Shown piece after piece: positions 1 to 26,177 of a stretch of 64,000 nt of DNA. The position numbers and the translations under genes were made by a program. Source of the stretch: Fistulifera solaris (Eukaryota). The stretch's first letter is position 1, and each line of letters begins with the position of its first letter. The notes below the pieces were generated by a model, which did not search any database, was not told where the DNA came from, and saw only the letters and a program-made list of their open reading frames with translations. The stretch spans positions 496,001-560,000 of the forward strand of contig AP026135.1 in NCBI GenBank assembly GCA_030295235.1, in the 5' to 3' direction.

Positions 1-2558
1 TTGACTTCTTGGTATGGCAGTTCAGCTGCTAGGCGTTGGACGTTCAACGCCGAAGAAATATTGGATTCAGCCGCCTCCTGCAATGACTGAGTAAAGCTGA
101 CAGTTGCAGCACAATTGTAAACATGCGTAATGAACGGTTCTTCTTTTAGCTGTTCAAGGCTTTCCGCGGCCAGACCAGCGTTTGCCTGGCTTATGTCACC
201 CGGCATGACAACAATGGCTGAGAAAAGGTCATCTTTGGGCACGCACGAAAAGATTGGATTTTCGAGCAAGCGATGTATCCTCTCGTCGGAGGAAAGGCCC
301 CCTTCGGCCGAACTATGACATAGATTCGTTTAATAGAGTATTGTCGTCGGCGGCAGAGCAATTCACGGAGAATCGTCGAACCAACGAAACCGGTAACACC
401 TGTTAATAAAACGGAACGTTCCGTGTCGCCGGTATCGAAATCAGAATGAGTTTCATCGACGACGTCGACGAAGTTTAGATCATCCAAATTTTTAGTCACT
501 GTTGAAGGATGCTTGGACCCCAAATCGAACAAATATGAATATTTTGCGAAAGCGTTGGAACTTTCGAGGTAAAAGGAGGCCATTTTCAAACGTAAAAACT
601 GCGTCGCGAGGATCGCAGTAGCAATGACACACACCATGACAGAGAATAGTATGGTGCAAACTTTTACCAGGAAAGTGCTGAAGCCATAGAATATGGAGAA
701 AATGAATGAAAAGGCAACCCATGAGCGAAATGAAAAAGCAACGTTTTTGGCTTTCATAGTCTTCATTCCTACCCCGGCCCCGAAATTGCTTATGGATTGT
801 GGTAGATTGTTGATCCAGTGTGATGATATTCGATGTGCCCCATTGGACACGGGCAAATACATAATTCGTTTCATAACACTGTAAGCGCGCGGGCATTTCT
901 CGGACTCCCCCTATGCAACGGAGCTGCGATGCACCTTGCGTGGCATCAATTCCATGGTTCGTCAAATATACACAAAGATCCTGCACATTGTTAGCAAGTA
1001 CAGGGAAAAGCCAACATGCGTGAAAGTAGGAAGGATCCAGAAAGCGTGGGACTCTCACATCTGCTTGATGCCGGAGAACGTCGGCCAAACGTCCACAATG
1101 CCGTCGACGCGCCGAAATGAGTTCAGCTGTGCCTTTTCCCTGCTTCATACGGCGAATCAATAAAGCAAGCAAGCTAGAACACGGCATAAATCTGATCTGG
1201 GCCATGTAGTCACCTCTCACTTCAGTCGAGCTTTTGAAGCCACGAGTAAGGGCTGTAGCGAAAGTATCGAAGTCCAAGCGAACGCTTCGAAAGAATGAAA
1301 CCAACAGTCCATAAATGACGGGATGGTCCGTAACTAGTCGAATAAGTAATGCTTTGCAGACTTTGGAGAAGAAAACTGCATAGGACTGGCGATCGGGGTA
1401 GCAAGCTGAAAACAGACGCTTCATAGATTCATGCGTTTCTTTGTCGCGCACGATAGCCACGCCACCGCCCAACGCTGTCGCCGTTTTAATGAAACCGAAA
1501 GAGAAAAGAACAATATCCGAATATGGACTCCCGAGGTAAGTGCCGGTATCGTTTTCAGTCTCTGGAAGCCCACCAAAGCACTCCGCACAGTCTTCAATTA
1601 ATTCCACACCGCGACTTCTACAAACCGTGTGTATCCTTTGCATATCTTCCGAGCTCGCCGTTAGCATTCCAAAGACATGAACGACAATAATGGCGACCGT
1701 TTTGTCTGTTATCGCGTGTTCCACTGCATTCATATCCACCAATATGAAAGGCCTGTCTCCGTTGTGTTCTGGGATATCAACAGGGACGACTTCTAATCGA
1801 TGATGTCGTAAGACCTCTTCGATTCCGGGAACTGTAATAGGCGGACAAATGATAATTTGCGATCCCGAAGGAAATCGTTTTGTGCGTAAGTACAGATCGA
1901 GAAGAGTCCTAGCAGAAAATCCAGGTATTACTCCAACATTCTTCCCCACACTTTGCTGCCATAAATCAATGATTTCTTGTTCGTAGTAACTAGTATTCGG
2001 GCCGAGATTGAGAGACGAAAACAGACAGTGCGTGGCTGCAAACAAAAGATCGCTGTAAGCAATATCCAAATGTCCTCTCGGAATGATGCCGACATGGCTT
2101 TGCGAGGTTTCGGTAACAGTCTTATTTTGCACAGAGCGCCTGTCCGAGCTTGCCGACGTTGCGATACTCCGGTCATCCATAACTCGAGGAGAAGTGGACC
2201 TATCTCCGCTTCGCAGATGATCAACAAGTCGTTGCGCTTCTTGACCCACACTGTTGTGTGTCTGTTGCGCCACTAAATCTATATAGTTTTGCATGGCCTC
2301 TATTTTTGAGAGGTTCGAGCATTCCATCCAAGCCTTGTGCTTTGCATGTGCCTTCACGCGGTACACAGGCGGTGGTTCCGCTTCACAGGCACCATTTCTG
2401 ACGCGCTTGAAAAGTCCGTAAAGTTTCAACTTGGTGTCAGTCGAAATATTATTATCGTCGTTAGGGGTTTCGTTCGACTCCGAGACCAGGCGAGAAACGG
2501 TTTCAAAAGTTGACGCCAACTTATCGCTTTCCACTACGTTTTCACCGGGGACAGACAT
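1..2558 (-). CDS. Multidomain protein: acyl-CoA-binding domain + DegT/DnrJ/EryC1/StrS PLP aminotransferase + 2 TM helices + fatty acyl-CoA reductase (NAD_binding_4) domain; runs off the window start; 2 apparent frameshifts
   Basis: ACBP motif KLKLYGLFK..NG.C....P......A.AK..AW...LSK.EAM..YI.LV; DegT motifs AIIVVHVFG, LIEDCAE, SFGFIKTATALGGG (PLP Lys). Removing one base of the C5 run at 907-911 gives ...CPRAYSVMKRIMYLPV, joining ORFs 492..2558 and 191..874. Rossmann VLLTGVTGFVGS follows. Adding one base at the C5 run 298-302 continues as ERIHRLL..VMPGDIS..GL..THVYNCAATVSF..AAESN. Confidence 0.85.
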
Positions 2559-4043
2559 TTGATTTCTAGTATCATTAAAAGGAAGAATTAATGCTGAATG
2601 ATAGTAGCGTCTCGGTTGAACTCTTTTCTACTACTTGATGAAGGAGCAGCAAGGTGAGGACTGAGATTTTGCTTGGATCTACGTACCAGTATCTATCGCG
2701 TCATCTTCTTGTCCGTTGTCCGTGAGGGCGGTTCATGTACAGACGAAAAAGTGACGCATAAAACAGGACTAAAATGTGAATAAATCTTAGGGTTACCGCA
2801 AGGTTCCTTATTCCTATAAGTACAGTACCGTACTAGGTACCGTCCTGGTACGTACCAGGTACGGTATAATTTGGACAAAAATAATAAAGTAGTACGTCAC
2901 ATCCATAACCGGAAGACGGGACCCACACCGAACTGTCGATTACCGATTACTATTGTTCAGAGTGATGAAGAAAGAGCCTATTCGACTTAAATGTTCGGCT
3001 AAATTTTTACTCCATAGCATTAAAAGTACAAGCCTTAGCTTCTCGTCTCTCCTCTCTCCTCTCTCGTCGATCGTCCATCGTCCCTCTGCAGCTCTTCAGT
3101 AACGTTCTACAAGTACCCGTACCGGTAGTCTCTCATTCGGCGACCAAAAGGAAAGACGGGACTGAAATCTTACCAGTAAGTCTTACGTCACGGTCATTGG
3201 TTAAAACGTCACAGCAAAGGTCACTGTTCCTGCGTTCTTTCCTGTCATTGCTGTACTGTCGATAAGATTTCCAAGTTCTTGTACACTATTGCCTACGAAC
3301 TTGACGTAACCTTGATTTACGAACACAATCCCAAACCTTTAGGATCTACCAGGTACTCGGAGTATTTTTTTATTACCCCATACCCAGGTACCCCCCCCCC
3401 CGGAGTATTTTATTGTGTGTTCCTAATTTCCTAAAGTCCGAATGAAATTTTGACACTTAACCTTGATTACTGATACGCCTATTGCCGAAACGTAAAACGT
3501 GAATGCCGCTTTGCCCTTGAAGCTTTCCTTACTACACAATATCTTTATAGAACCCAGAGTTTACTAGCAAAACCGGAAAAGTTCAACAGTTCACAATAGA
3601 AGTGAATGTACTACGACGTGACAACAACAAATGATAATCGATACGTTCTATGTAAACCTGTACATTTGATCTTAGTGTAACAGACACTCGTCATAACGTA
3701 GAACATAGTTCAATAATTTTTGACAAGCCATGTGCCAGGTATTCGGCATTCGGTAAGTGTTGTTCATACAGAGGTGTACAATACCAGTGGCATTTGGTAT
3801 TCCGAAGTCTATATGCCATCGATCGTAAAGATGAACGCTGTTTGCTCTCTGCAATACATATCAATCCATAGTCAAAGTTAAACTGGCATTTGTCTAATCG
3901 TAAAGAAATAGTGAAATGACTCTTTACTGGTCGTCGAAAATAATGGACGCGATCAACATGAAAAACCGGGGCCAGAAGAACCCAGTCTCTCGTTTCAAAT
4001 TTAACTTTTGCATTTTGACAAAAAGTCAAACAATAAATAAGCA

Positions 4044-6156
<2,113 letters not shown>

Positions 6157-18132: not shown

Positions 18133-18196
18133 GGAGATGCTTATAGACCGCATGAATGAGGTCCAAGTAATTAATGAACTACTACCAACTACCAAC

Positions 18197-19796
18197 ATGC
18201 CTTCAACGCTGCCTTCCGCCATCACACGAACCGCCCATGATGCGCTGCTCGCCAAACAATCCGGCGGCGCGCGCGGGATACGAGATGGGTGACGATCTAT
18301 ACCGCGATTGCCTACTTGTTTCATCATCGTCGTCACGACAAACTCCCCTCGTAAACGCTGGATATGCCGTACGCGTCGTGTGCATTCTACAATCCATTCA
18401 GACCTTTGCTTCTGCGAATACGATAGTCATTGTGTTGGGAGCGGGTTTGGATGTGGCAGGCGTATGGACGGCGCTCCGTGGAGCACATCGTGTCATTGAA
18501 ATAGATGTTCCGGAAATATGTCACAGTAAGGTCGATTTAGTGTTGAAGAAGGTTCCTTTTGTCGAGACTTCTGCAACCGACGGCAATCGAGTGTTTCAAG
18601 GAACAACAGCAACGGGAGGATTGTATACGCTGTTAGCGACCGATCTCCGAAATAAGAATGAATGGAGACATGACTTAATGAACATTTTGCAAAGCAACGA
18701 ACAAGACGCCAGTACTTCGCATTCGTATTTGGTCATTTCTGAGCTCGTCATGACGTACTTGGACCACTCTGTGTCGGATGATATAATGGAATTTTGTAGC
18801 CGGTTGCCCAATTGCTGTTTGGTGGCCTACGAGCCCTATGGGTGTAGCAGCGATGACAAAGATAAATCCGTGCTCGAGGAGTACAAGAGAGCCTATTTGG
18901 GTCAATTTCACGAAAAATTGGAAAAAGGCAATTCGACGATTTCCTCCCTTTCCATGTACCCACTCGGGTACTCCGCCAACACAGTCATGGCGCGAATGAA
19001 ACGCTTTTTCCCCCGGGCCTACGTGACTTCCGCCGGTCTAGCCACCGCAGCGCACGGCATTTCGTTACGAATACCCGAACCATTCGATGAGTACATGGCG
19101 CTGACTTTGCATTTACAGTCCTACATGCTGGCTTGCGCCTTTTCCTCTAGCGAAGATACTTTGCTCCAACGTAGAATGTGTCCGTGGTCCATCGGGTTTG
19201 CCCCAATTAGGATCCCAGACCAAAGTGTCGTTGCCTGGATCACGCCCGTGGAAATCGAAGATGAAGTCGCCATCCGTGAATTGTTTGCTCAGTCATATGA
19301 ACAGTTTTTTGCAACGCACCCGTCGATTCAGAAGATGGTTAACACTTCCTTGAAAAAAGACATGGCTCTGACGATCGACGATGCTGCATCCTCGTCGCAG
19401 ATGCGACAGTGGTTCCGTGATCGAGAAGGCGACTTTTTCGTGGCTGTGCAGCACCATCCTCGATCTGTGTTGGGTGGAATAGCCGTACGTAAATGTACAC
19501 CCAAGGAACAGCAACTCCACACGAATGATACTGGACAAAACACAGCAAGAGACGTTTACGAGTTGCACCGGTTGGTCGTACATCCTGCTTGGTATCGACG
19601 AGGAATCGGGAAAGCTCTTCTCGAATGCGTCGAAAGACAAATTACTTCGAAAGCTAAGAAGACGGTAATGCTGACCGCAACGACCTTTGCCGGCCTTGAG
19701 GGAGCGAATCAGTTTTACACTTCCTGCGGTTTTAGTCTGCCTCAATCCTTTCATTTGGGTGACTTGCAAATGCACACGTATCGAAAGGTACTTTGA
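18197..19796 (+). CDS. Leucine carboxyl methyltransferase (LCMT1/PPM1-like) fused to a C-terminal GNAT acetyltransferase; frameshift near 18262
   Basis: ATG 18197 gives MPSTLPSAITRTAHDALLAKQSAARAGY after a 1-nt correction (LCM N-terminal motif); VLGAGLD, IEID.P, ATDLR, SELVMTYL, EPFDE; GNAT YELHRLVVHPAWYRRGIGKALL and ANQFYTSCGF. Confidence 0.8.
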
Positions 19797-21816: not shown

Positions 21817-24800
21817 ATGTGCAAAAGCGAAGATTCCCCACCCGACACCAATTCCTCCGGTTCGACGGATGAGAACAAGTTATCGTCCCCGGCCGACGCG
21901 AACCCGGTCGTCCAGAGAACCTGCTTTTCCAATTTGCTGTGTTGCGGCGGTGCTCGACAGGTAGCATCCGCCAAAGAGCTGGGCGTATGGGAGAAGAGTC
22001 TAGAAGATCAAGCCGGTTTCGTTTCACAATGGCTCCTTTCCTTTCTCAATCCGCTCCTTAGTCTCGGTTCGCACAAAGTACTCGACGCCGAAGACATTGG
22101 AGTTCCTTCCCAAAATGATCGCGCCGAGAAAGCGTACCGAGTTGCCATGGAGGCTTGGGAAGTACAATCGGTCAAAGCGGCCGCCATTAATAAGAAATTG
22201 AAACAAAAACATGAAGCAAAATTGGCTCAATGCAAAACACAAGAAGAGCGGAACAAAGTCAAACCACTGGAACTAAAAGACCCCAGCATTTCGGCGGCAC
22301 TAGCGACGGGATACGGAAAGTGGACATTGTTCATCGCCATCTTGTATTATGTCATTTCCGCTCTCTTGGGTTTCGTTCCCGTTCTCATTCTCAACAATCT
22401 CGTAACATTCTTTGAATCGGGAGAGCCACTGGGACCAATTGATAGTATTGAGCACCCCTGGATCCAAGTGATGGCTTTGGGGGCACTGCCATTTGTAATT
22501 TCGTTACTCCAAACCAGACATCTCACCATTATGAGTCACGCGGCGGTGTTTGTACGGACCGCGGTTTCGACCATGCTCTATCGCAAAGCTGTACGAGTAT
22601 CGGCGGCTGGTCGGGCCAAGACATCCACGGGACAGGTCGTTAATATGATGTCGAATGATACTGCGCAGTTACAACGATTTCTGCAGTTCATTGGGTTCAC
22701 CATGGTGGCTCCGATTCAAATTGTGTTGGCTTTGGCGCTGATTTATCAACAGGTAGGTAACAGAAATGATTGCAGTCTGCAATATACAAGAGCTTTTCTT
22801 ACAAATAACTGCTCCCCAGGTTGGTAATGCTACGTGGGTTGGTGTTGGTTTCATGGTGCTATTGATGCCAGTCAACACGGTCGTGTTCTCCATCGTTTCA
22901 AAGCAACGCCGAGAAGTTTTGAAATACTCCGATTTGCGCGTGAAAATGATGAACGAGATTCTGTCGGGAATTCGAATCATCAAGTTCTATGCTTGGGAGC
23001 GTCCTTTCGGAAAGAAGTGAGCGAACTTCGCGGGAACGAGCTCAAAGCTCTGACGCGATTGGCCTACACGTCGGCGATTGGATTTTCGTTGATTCTCATG
23101 GCGGCGCCTCTCATTCAACCCGTCTTGGTCTTTGTTACATACGTTGCAATCCAAGACGAGCCTCTAACAGCATCCACCGCTTTTACGACGGTCGCTCTTT
23201 TCAACATGATGCGCTTCCCTTTCGCATTCTTGCCAATGGGTCTTCTGCAGTATATACAGAGCAAGATATCGTTATCTCGTCTCGAGCGATACTTGGATTT
23301 ACCTGAACTTACCGAATACGTAGAGCCAAATCCTCCTCCGAATGCGTCAGAGTCGGAAACCGTTTGCGGAAGCATTACGATACGGAACGGAACTTTCAGC
23401 TGGGTTGACCCTGAGGCTGGTCCAGTTCGGCCAATTCAGGACGAAAAGCCAAAGAAAGAGAAGAAGTCCAAGAGAGGAAAGAAATCTGATGACGAAATGT
23501 CATCGAGCGAACACAGCCGCAAAAGCGAAGGTAGTAAAGCAAGCGAAAACACCGACGCAACAACTAAAGTCCCTGTGATTACGCTACGTGATATCAATTG
23601 TCATGTAGAGTCTGGCAGTTTGGTGGCAGTTGTGGGGACGGTCGGTAGCGGAAAGTCCAGTTTCTTGTCTGCTATCTTGGGAGAGCTAGAACCGATCCAT
23701 GATTCCAAAGTTTACATGCCGCGCGCCGGCGCTAAACGAGACGGTTTTGTATCTTATTGCTCCCAAACACCTTGGGTCGTAAACGATACCCTAAGAGGAA
23801 ACATCTTGTTTGGTCGAGACTTTAATCAGGAACGATACGAAGAAATCATTGATGCCTGTGCGCTTCGAGACGATCTTGCTGTCCTTCCTGCTGGAGATAT
23901 GACTGAAATCGGGGAAAGGGGAATCAATCTGTCAGGAGGACAGAAAGCTCGCGTTTCCCTTGCCCGTGCCATGTATTCAAAGGACACTAAAATTGTTCTT
24001 TTAGACGATCCTCTTTCGGCAGTAGATTCACACGTAGGTGAATGGATTTTTTCTAAGGCAATAACTGGCTCTGTCAGCAAGGGGACAACGAGAATGATTG
24101 TCACCCACCATGTGCACTTACTCGCACGGTGCGACAAGGTGATCGTTATGGACAAAGGGACCATTCGACATCATGGCTCCTACGAGGAGTTAGTTTCCAA
24201 AGGCGTCGACTTTGCAGGTGCCATTGACGTATCGAAAATAAAAGTAGCTGAATCGAAAGATGAAGACGCGGAAAAGAAAGACGAGGAATCAAGTCCCAAG
24301 GCACAAGCACCTGAGAAGAAAGGCGAAGATCAAATTCAGCTTCAGAAGAATGGCAAGAAATTAGTCAAGGATGAAGAACGCGAAGAAGGAAGCGTTGCGG
24401 GTTCTGCCTACATGCACTACGCCAGAGTCGGTGGACTTGTGGTTGCCTTTATGGTTCTTCTCGTTCAGGCATTTGGTCGTGGTGCAGAAGTTATGGCTGG
24501 TTTTTGGTTAGCCTTTTGGGCCGAAGCTGCGAGTGACGCGACAAACGAGGGTGGACTGAGCACTAGTGAAACGAACTACTACGTTGCGATCTATGCCGTG
24601 TTCGGCCTGATTGGAGTAATCGGACTAACTGTCCGTTCCCTTCTGATCGCAGTGCATCGCTTGGCAGCATCCAAAATTCTCCATGACGGTTTAACGGAAA
24701 GTATTCTGCGGGCACCTGTTTCGTTTTTTGATGTCACCCCAACAGGACGTGTGCTGAATCGGTTTGCCGCCGATATGGACAAGATCGATCTCGAGCTGAC

Positions 24801-26177
24801 CCAAACGCTTTCTCAAGGCATTTCAACACTCTTCAATGTATTGGGTGCCATCGCGGCTATTATCGCTGCAACGCGAGGGACCTTTCTTGTGCCACTTGTA
24901 CCGATCAGCTATTGTTACTACGTTATCCAAAAATGGTTTCGCAAAACATCGACGGAGCTTCAGAGAATCAACAGCATTGCGAATTCACCTATTTTTGCTG
25001 ACTTTTCACAGACCTTGTCCGGGACGAACACAATTCGCGCATATGGAGAAGAAACCCGATTTTTCGAGCAGTGCAAACATTCATTCGACACGATGAATGC
25101 CTCTTACATCCTTATCCAACTCGTTAGCTCGTGGTTGAGTTTGAGATTGGACATCCTTGGTGGCTTCATCGGAGCCTTTATCGGTGGCCTCGCAGTCGCC
25201 ACATACTCCAGCAGCTTCATCCCCGCTGGTTGGCTAGGACTTGCTCTCTCGTACAGCATTGAAGTCACGAATTTTCTTAAACACGGAGTCAAGATGATCG
25301 CGACGCTTGAGGCGCAGATGAACTCTGTGGAACGTGTTCTTTCTACACCGATCAAGTTGAACCCGAGGCGCCAGAGTTCATTCCTGATGTGGACCCCGCA
25401 CCATCCGAATGGCCGACGAAAGGCAATATTGAATTTCGAGGAGCATCTATGCGATATCGCGACGGACCCCTTGTTTTGAAGAACATTTCCTTACAAGTGA
25501 AAGGGAGTGAGAAGATCGGAGTTTGTGGTCGTACAGGAAGCGGAAAGAGCAGCCTCATGATCTCTTTATTTCGAATTACGGAGCTTGAGGAGGATGGCGG
25601 CGCCATCATAATTGACGACCTCAATGTTAGGGAAATCGGAACGTCAACACTTCGTCTAAATCTTTCTATCATTCCTCAAGACCCAATCATTTTCTCGAAC
25701 ACAGTCCGATATAACCTCGACCCATTCAAATTTGCATCTACCGAAGAGCTATGGGAGGTTTTGAAGAAGGTTCAAATGGATACGGTTATCCAGGAGCTAC
25801 CCAATGGGCTCGATGAACTTGTTTCCGAAGGAGGGGAGAACTTTTCTCAAGGACAGAGACAATTACTCTGTATCGCTCGCGCTTTGCTGCGCAAACCGAA
25901 GATCCTTGTCATGGATGAAGCCACGGCAAGCATTGACAATGCCACGGACGCTCACATTCAGACCATGATCCGAGAGAACTTCAAGGATGCTACGGTTCTC
26001 ACTATCGCGCATCGCTTGAACACGATCATGGACAGTGATCGAGTGTTGGTTCTCGATAACGGCAACATTGCTGAGTTTGATACCCCCGAAAAGCTACTGG
26101 AGAAAGAAGATGGCTTATTCAAGGCGATGGTTGACAAGAGCAAAGCGGCCAGTGGCGTTGCTCTTGTGGAAGATTAA
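21817..26177 (+). CDS. ABC transporter subfamily C (MRP-like), TMD-NBD-TMD-NBD; intron 22753-22819, frameshifts near 23010 and 25350
   Basis: GTVGSGKSS / LSGGQKAR / [10 protein letters not shown] and GRTGSGKSS / FSQGQRQL / VMDEATA / [21 protein letters not shown]. Confidence 0.93.

Follow-up and report, generated by a model that had tools for sequence, protein, structure and literature searches.

The first 2,558 bases of a 64,000-nt stretch of DNA from the diatom Fistulifera solaris (the whole stretch is referred to here as the window) carry, on the minus strand, the 5′ third of what we consider, with a probability of roughly three in four, to be one intron-free gene encoding a membrane-anchored multi-enzyme of 2,220 residues, which carries out the first steps of ether-lipid synthesis. 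The 3′ part of the gene lies outside the window. In order from the N-terminus, the protein contains an acyl-coenzyme A (acyl-CoA) binding domain (ACBP), a pyridoxal phosphate (PLP) enzyme of the DegT type, a two-helix hairpin, a fatty acyl-CoA reductase (FAR), a GNPAT-like acyltransferase, and an alkyl-dihydroxyacetone phosphate (alkyl-DHAP) synthase (AGPS). According to the main text of a 2026 survey, FAR, GNPAT and AGPS are the entry enzymes of ether-lipid synthesis in animals and protists (PMC13012113).

The open frame has its first ATG at 2556..2558 (minus strand), which gives a product starting MSVPGEN, with the same first residue as P0004, the product recorded for the window (2,220 residues). 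As given, the sequence is open in three pieces (912-2558, 549 residues; 302-910, 203 residues; and 3-302, 100 residues), and the breaks between them coincide with two runs of five C, at 907..911 and 298..302. A first-pass annotation, made from the letters of the sequence, had proposed a single-base correction in each of these runs and a single reading frame through the region. Both corrections are present in the contigs of the public run X1, which is independent of the assembly: one base fewer at 907 (depth 18.2 of 18.2) and one extra C behind 297 (depth 29.2 of 29.2). In X1, 0.88 of the sampled words of the stretch are present and the contigs span 30 of the 30 bins with no joints; the library type of this run is a guess, and it backs the DNA sequence, not its transcription. 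Two further public runs, X2 and X3, contain next to nothing of the stretch. Application of both X1 changes by script opens the frame over 852 codons, none of them a stop, and the translation agrees with the beginning of P0004 at all 852 positions, so that the single frame proposed earlier is borne out. Since the X1 contigs differ at exactly the two runs and the corrected reading equals P0004, both breaks are homopolymer miscounts of the assembly, and the open reading frame (ORF) is single. The gene leaves the window at base 1; the 1,368 further residues discussed below, those beyond residue 852, were read from the P0004 protein.

The two breaks, together with the six stops that the unchanged sequence has in the starting frame, could be taken at face value as the mark of a pseudogene or of separate genes. 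We find this hardly credible. The changes seen in the X1 contigs are such as to restore the frame, neither break interrupts the product on record, and a paralogue of approximately 80% identity, as well as more distant relatives, retain a continuous architecture; on these grounds the pseudogene was rejected.

A second form of this gene is also present in X1. It differs in about 8% of its letters (156-327, 1694-1863 and 2430-2530), has a 3-base deletion at 2447, and diverges from the window just upstream of the ATG (loose end at 2560). A one-residue gap matching this deletion is seen in the paralogue P0005/P0266; P0005, which is 80% identical to P0004, is one residue shorter at that place. Because the deletion fits the gap in P0005, the second form suggests a paralogous or homeologous copy, that is, two diverged copies which are either homeologues or alleles. 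Farther upstream of the gene is a run of ten C (3381-3390), the assembled length of which is uncertain given the two miscounted C runs.

The four elements that had been noticed in the first-pass annotation, namely ACBP, a DegT-type domain with its PLP lysine in SFGFIK, a hydrophobic stretch, and a FAR/NAD_binding_4 reductase, were all recovered by Pfam and a hydropathy scan, on the minus strand and at the coordinates given in that annotation. The ACBP domain (PF00887) occupies 2271..2507, residues 18-96, with an E value of 6e-18 and 65.2 bits against a cut-off of 28.3, and covers positions 4-76 of the 76 in the profile. The DegT-type domain extends over 848..2087 (approximately residues 158-570), as judged from the PF01041 match at residues 186-384, an AlphaFold model, and the folds of PDB entries. 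The codon of K358, the last residue of SFGFIK, is at 1485..1487, and in the HMMER alignment this residue falls on the lysine of the solved DegT enzyme 7n63. The hydrophobic stretch at 584..721 (residues 613-658) is 46 residues long with one Lys inside, leaving room for two helices. Such a hairpin would put the domains before and after it on the same side of the membrane, as suggested in the first-pass annotation; the stretch might just as well be a monotopic anchor. The reductase begins in the window at 3..406 (135 residues, 718-852), with the motif GVTGFVG at 720 and matches to PF07993 on both pieces of the frame. The second break cuts this domain exactly, profile positions 1-33 falling in piece 302-910 and positions 38-127 in piece 3-302 (E 1.6e-14).

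In P0004 the NAD_binding_4 domain is complete (residues 718-992, profile positions 1-258 of 258, E 1.4e-42). Besides the Rossmann motif GVTGFVG at 720 it possesses the YxxxK pair, for which the first-pass annotation had pointed beyond the window, as YQLSK (Y913-K917), and thus has both motifs of the FAR family. The Sterile/FAR_C part, which had been expected there as well, was not found among the Pfam matches of P0004 at E <= 1e-5. The acyltransferase (PF01553, residues 1249-1374, E 2.6e-18) carries the HX4D motif as HRSFFD at 1260 and EGTR at 1339, and its nearest solved relative is GPAT1 (E 4.9e-10). This GNPAT-like domain may prefer dihydroxyacetone phosphate (DHAP), given its fusion to AGPS and the names which the sources give to its relatives.

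The C-terminal part shows the Pfam domains FAD_binding_4 (PF01565, residues 1755-1896) and FAD-oxidase_C (PF02913, residues 1943-2211). Residues 1638-2214 match the alkyl-DHAP synthase of the guinea pig (4bby, chain residues 94-656) with an E value of 2.2e-132, and the AGPS part matches the Dictyostelium enzyme (2uuu) at E 1.2e-77. Nearly the whole of the enzyme is covered, including the HHH loop, at 2173. Unlike these relatives, in which AGPS is a free peroxisomal enzyme, it forms here the C-terminal domain of a 2,220-residue protein. The consensus of the peroxisomal targeting signal type 1 (PTS1) is a C-terminus of the SKL type. This is absent from P0004, which ends in GFSAR, and from the printed C-termini of 87 long relatives.

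AGPS uses fatty alcohol as a substrate. Because it is carried on the same chain, the reductase is best read as an alcohol-forming FAR, which most likely feeds fatty alcohol to AGPS rather than an aldehyde to an amination reaction. What is observed is a set of domains with their catalytic motifs, in a single frame and in an architecture that is conserved (see below); from the known chemistry of the families a pathway may be proposed. The ACBP domain would gather long-chain acyl-CoA, one molecule of which would be turned into fatty alcohol by FAR; the acyltransferase would load a second acyl chain onto DHAP, giving acyl-DHAP, and AGPS would then exchange the acyl group for the alcohol, giving 1-O-alkyl-DHAP.

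The arrangement of the central part is that of FARAT, a bifunctional FAR-GNPAT fusion reported from Tetrahymena thermophila and Dictyostelium (PMC13012113). As in FARAT, a single chain carries FAR followed by a GNPAT-type acyltransferase, and both precursors of AGPS would be supplied. Unlike FARAT, the diatom protein adds AGPS itself, possesses ACBP, the PLP enzyme and the hairpin in front of FAR, and is without an SKL-type end. The main text of the survey names Ciliophora as the only Diaphoretickes with FARAT; in the diatom proteins described here, a FAR-GNPAT fusion forms part of a longer chain. That main text does not mention diatom, stramenopile, aminotransferase, DegT or ACBP, and a search of 12 of the 15 supplementary files gave separate AGPS entries of approximately 560 residues for Phaeodactylum, Fragilariopsis and Pseudo-nitzschia (PMC13012113).

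The architecture is conserved. Fifty-four longer relatives of the first 549 residues were identified, 53 of which are multi-domain proteins of this kind and one of which (P0055) is bacterial. DegT and NAD_binding_4 domains occur together with a whole or partial acyltransferase domain in 53 of the 54, and AGPS domains are also present in 21. All of the relatives with an organism name (5/5) are from diatoms: Thalassiosira oceanica, Nitzschia sp., Cylindrotheca fusiformis, Amphora coffeaeformis and Fistulifera solaris, the last of these carrying the automatic name "alkyldihydroxyacetonephosphate synthase." One protein (P0021; 2,287 residues), from a transcriptome entry marked "type:complete," possesses all six domains. 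The FAR motif could be located in 83 long relatives, and in 82 of these DegT and FAR are separated by a hydrophobic stretch of 40-60 residues, the exception being P0031; four further long relatives, in which this motif is lacking, are left out of the count. Several of the relatives of approximately 1,400 residues stop within the acyltransferase motif. One of these shorter relatives is P0005, the 90% cluster of which also contains a 2,218-residue protein and, on a contig of equal length, a 685-residue AGPS model, from which it follows that at least some of the short forms are cut or split gene models. Three proteins with ACBP and DegT and no FAR (P0097, P0107 and P0195) were considered as a separate architecture and discounted; their contigs measure 2-14 kb, and the proteins could be truncated.

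The PLP domain belongs to a divergent clade of the DegT family with its catalytic site intact. The PF01041 match (E 1.7e-21; 77.3 bits against a cut-off of 19.8) spans only positions 23-200 of the 360 in the profile. Beyond it, the second half of the domain contains a mostly helical stretch of approximately 110 residues (model helices between 244 and 347). For residues 150-549 an AlphaFold model was built with 72 sequences; its predicted local distance difference test score (pLDDT) is 93.1. With this model the top PDB folds in Foldseek are all of the DegT type (Fic25, HCAN_0200, WecE, ArnB and perosamine synthase), with template-modelling (TM) scores of 0.56-0.62, a probability of 1.00, and 15-20% identity. 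By sequence, the best PDB match reaches an E value of only 3e-9. None of the NCBIfam equivalogs (ArnB, PseC, WecE, DesI, RfbH and others) attains its cut-off, the best being PseC with 51.6 bits against 423.5, and a search of a protein atlas returned generic DegT clusters only.

K358 and D323 (the latter in EDCAECFG) show no substitution in an alignment of 179 sequences, being present in 92 of 92 fused relatives and in 87 of 87 others. We take K358 to be the lysine that forms the Schiff base with PLP, and D323 the aspartate that binds the pyridine nitrogen, as in the family at large. The residues S353-F354-G355 are likewise invariant, apart from one Leu at 354. Since the lysine, the aspartate and the surrounding motif are kept in all 179, the domain is likely to be catalytic. 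R217, R439, R456, R470 and W516 are kept at 84-100%, and the four arginines fit an anionic substrate such as a phosphate. The domain resembles the nucleotide-sugar aminotransferases of the DegT/DnrJ/EryC1/StrS family (ArnB, WecE, perosamine synthase, QdtB and HCAN_0200) in its fold, its PLP Lys and Asp, and the motif SFxxxK; it is unlike them in its low identity (15-20%, with TM scores of about 0.6), its helical stretch of approximately 110 residues, and its fusion partners, which are those of lipid and glycerol phosphate metabolism.

This clade has many members. A total of 3,503 relatives was found at E <= 0.001, and at least 553 bacterial loci occur in genome contigs, from Planctomycetota, Chloroflexota, Verrucomicrobiota, Acidobacteriota, Pseudomonadota and Cyanobacteria. 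The distribution is patchy, the clade being present in nine of the 201 genomes sampled from one phylum. Several kinds of fusion recur or were seen once. GlpD-type glycerol-3-phosphate dehydrogenase/oxidase is joined to the domain in P0055, P0112 (NCBIfam E 2.9e-73) and P0154. An N-terminal acyltransferase of the PlsC type is found in 16 of 73 matches; the order of the domains was checked in five. A FAD-dependent oxidase of the VAO type, resembling lactone oxidase or DprE1, is the partner in P0111, P0130, P0161, L040 (L040:7947-10574) and L062 (L062:7947-10568). P0198, P0206, P0216, P0231 and P0244 are further bacterial members of the clade with partners from among these three kinds. P0186 carries a domain of the Exo_endo_phos phosphatase family, and P0101, on a short contig, a C-terminal ACBP. 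No reductase was found as a partner among the complete bacterial fusions scanned. A search of whole bacterial genomes for the acyltransferase-DegT fusion returned only stand-alone DegT genes, both in five of five genomes and in the nine of 201 genomes of the one phylum. Among 72 ORFs beside 15 stand-alone relatives, the only recurrent neighbor is a downstream PIG-L deacetylase, at three Pirellulales loci.

Glycerol-3-phosphate dehydrogenase of the GlpD type makes DHAP. The recurring logic of the fusions appears to be the generation of a carbonyl from a polyol phosphate, followed by amination and then by acylation. The fusions hint at a bacterial pathway, not described so far, whose products would be amino lipids or amino polyol phosphates.

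In the diatom protein, the intact PLP domain might aminate a carbonyl of the pathway, the likeliest being the C2 ketone of alkyl-DHAP or acyl-DHAP. We put this forward tentatively, at clearly less than even odds. The C2 ketone is favored because it is the only carbonyl which the fused enzymes make and do not consume; because described pathways reduce it by a separate NADPH-dependent enzyme, none of which is fused here; because the bacterial fusions point to substrates of the DHAP type and to acylation; and because the transamination of DHAP to serinol phosphate has precedents. Two such enzymes have been described. Cj1437 of Campylobacter jejuni is a PLP transaminase that converts DHAP to serinol phosphate (PMC11800397), and in Bradyrhizobium elkanii the same conversion is carried out by RtxA, through its N-terminal half (PMC3222319). 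The transamination proposed here would likewise take place at a C2 ketone, that of alkyl- or acyl-DHAP; the likeness drawn here is one of chemistry, and a sequence search of the PDB gave no entry named Cj1437 or RtxA. Unlike the domain studied here, both are soluble enzymes, serving the synthesis of capsule and of rhizobitoxine. The product of the diatom domain would be a 1-O-alkyl- (or acyl-) 2-amino-2-deoxyglycerol-3-phosphate, in other words a serinol phosphate backbone for an amino ether lipid, similar to the phosphate of a sphingoid base.

Other roles of the PLP domain have to be weighed against this one. The domain might act on a small, soluble phosphate ester, turning DHAP into serinol phosphate or phosphoserine into ethanolamine phosphate, and so supply a head group or backbone. 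The GlpD-DegT fusions do point to free DHAP, the conserved arginines would suit such a substrate, and in C. jejuni not only does Cj1437 aminate DHAP, but Cj1436 decarboxylates L-serine phosphate to ethanolamine phosphate (PMC11800397). We nevertheless consider it unlikely, as the direct link of the domain to ACBP, and in bacteria to acyltransferases, speaks for a substrate or product that bears an acyl group, and as the helical stretch is rich in hydrophobic residues, as for a lid that would bind lipid. An activity outside the lipid pathway seems less probable still, and very improbable overall: the domain could be a module for dimerization or regulation, or could catalyze a Claisen-type condensation of acyl-CoA such as that of serine palmitoyltransferase. 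ACBP directly precedes the PLP domain, DegT enzymes and AGPS are both dimers, and the characterized relatives are all distant. A purely structural module, however, does not agree with the retention of the lysine, the aspartate and their motif throughout the 179 sequences, which points to catalysis; no condensing enzyme is known in the DegT family, and every matching fold is that of a DegT-type aminotransferase or dehydratase.

The function suggested in the first-pass annotation was that of a fatty-amine or amino-lipid synthase, in which FAR would release a fatty aldehyde and the PLP domain would transaminate it to a long-chain primary amine. The reductase and the aminotransferase are indeed on one chain and on the same side of the hairpin, the PLP site is intact, the FAR domain has weak, sub-threshold matches to the models for thioester reductases and MxcG, and some of the bacterial partners are VAO-type oxidases, which could give aldehydes. 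There are also bacterial amine makers that pair a reductase with a transaminase, such as TamH and MxcG/MxcL. The diatom protein is like these in joining an NAD(P)H-dependent reductase of the thioester type to a PLP aminotransferase. In TamH and MxcG/MxcL the reductases use thioesters bound to a carrier and go no further than the aldehyde, whereas the protein described here has an alcohol-forming FAR fused to enzymes that consume alcohol. AGPS on the same chain needs an alcohol, so that the reductase must proceed to this stage, and AGPS would compete for its output; FARs of the male-sterility type are not known to release aldehyde; and with no reductase partner in the complete bacterial fusions scanned this is the less economical explanation. 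Synthesis of a fatty amine as the main function is thus not supported by a chain that also holds a GNPAT-type acyltransferase and AGPS, and we regard it as distinctly unlikely. What stands of that interpretation is the single ORF, the domains, the PLP lysine, and the hairpin.

Several observations weigh against the ether-lipid multi-enzyme and, in particular, against amination of its alkyl- or acyl-DHAP. By its sequence the acyltransferase could prefer glycerol-3-phosphate to DHAP, and the C-terminus GFSAR does not fit a peroxisomal signal of the SKL type. Many relatives of approximately 1,400 residues are without AGPS, at least some of which are the cut or split gene models noted above. With no equivalog above its cut-off, and with the best PDB match at E 3e-9, the specificity of the PLP domain cannot be read from characterized relatives; its putative substrate has been deduced solely from its fusion partners. 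The FAD-dependent partners in bacteria, being similar to lactone oxidase and DprE1, could yield sugar carbonyls or aldehydes and not derivatives of DHAP, and no conserved lipid context was found beside 15 stand-alone bacterial relatives (72 neighboring ORFs). The precedent of Cj1437 and RtxA is a chemical one. Finally, we know of no amino ether lipids of the proposed kind from diatoms.

Should the PLP domain aminate an intermediate of the pathway, a new lipid backbone would result, and the large bacterial clade of DegT proteins would acquire a function. Carried further, diatoms might make a new class of membrane or signaling lipids on 1-O-alkyl-2-amino-2-deoxyglycerol (alkyl-serinol) phosphate, ether-linked look-alikes of sphingoid base phosphates and ceramides, in which a PLP transaminase replaces the NADPH-dependent reduction of alkyl-DHAP, and the bacterial clade, with its GlpD-type and PlsC-type partners, might mark a widespread pathway to amino-glycerolipids that has gone unrecognized. 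This wider proposal is speculative, and we regard it as doubtful.

Diatoms account for a large share of ocean photosynthesis. Much work has been done on ether-lipid synthesis in animals, ciliates, slime moulds and myxobacteria, and hardly any in diatoms. The presence of the whole entry pathway on one diatom polypeptide would offer a single-gene handle for knockout and for heterologous expression, and none of the described ether-lipid pathways contains a counterpart of the PLP enzyme, which is fused here and strictly conserved. The sequence itself is not new, since public gene models with automatic names exist; the functional reading is. A full-text search of the literature gave no paper on an ACBP-aminotransferase-FAR-GNPAT-AGPS protein, one of the queries, on diatoms, being diluted by broad terms, and no description either of the triple fusion with AGPS or of the N-terminal module of ACBP, PLP enzyme and hairpin was found. 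In a 2026 review of the fatty acid metabolism of stramenopiles (PMC13235166) the words ether, fatty alcohol, fatty acyl-CoA reductase and aminotransferase are absent.

Some other features of the window were observed. An open frame on the plus strand at 4187-5404 has a non-repetitive N-terminal part followed by a long Pro/Val/Ala repeat composed of PVPVAA units; it gave no match in Pfam, and its product could be a secreted or cell-wall protein. An ABC transporter (21817-22827 and 23098-25479) and a helicase of the SNF2 type (47485-49776 and 49878-51209), both on the plus strand, are each presented as two consecutive frames, which could be due to introns or to more homopolymer miscounts. A further open frame on the plus strand, at 18174-19796, combines a domain resembling leucine carboxyl methyltransferase with a GNAT acetyltransferase domain.

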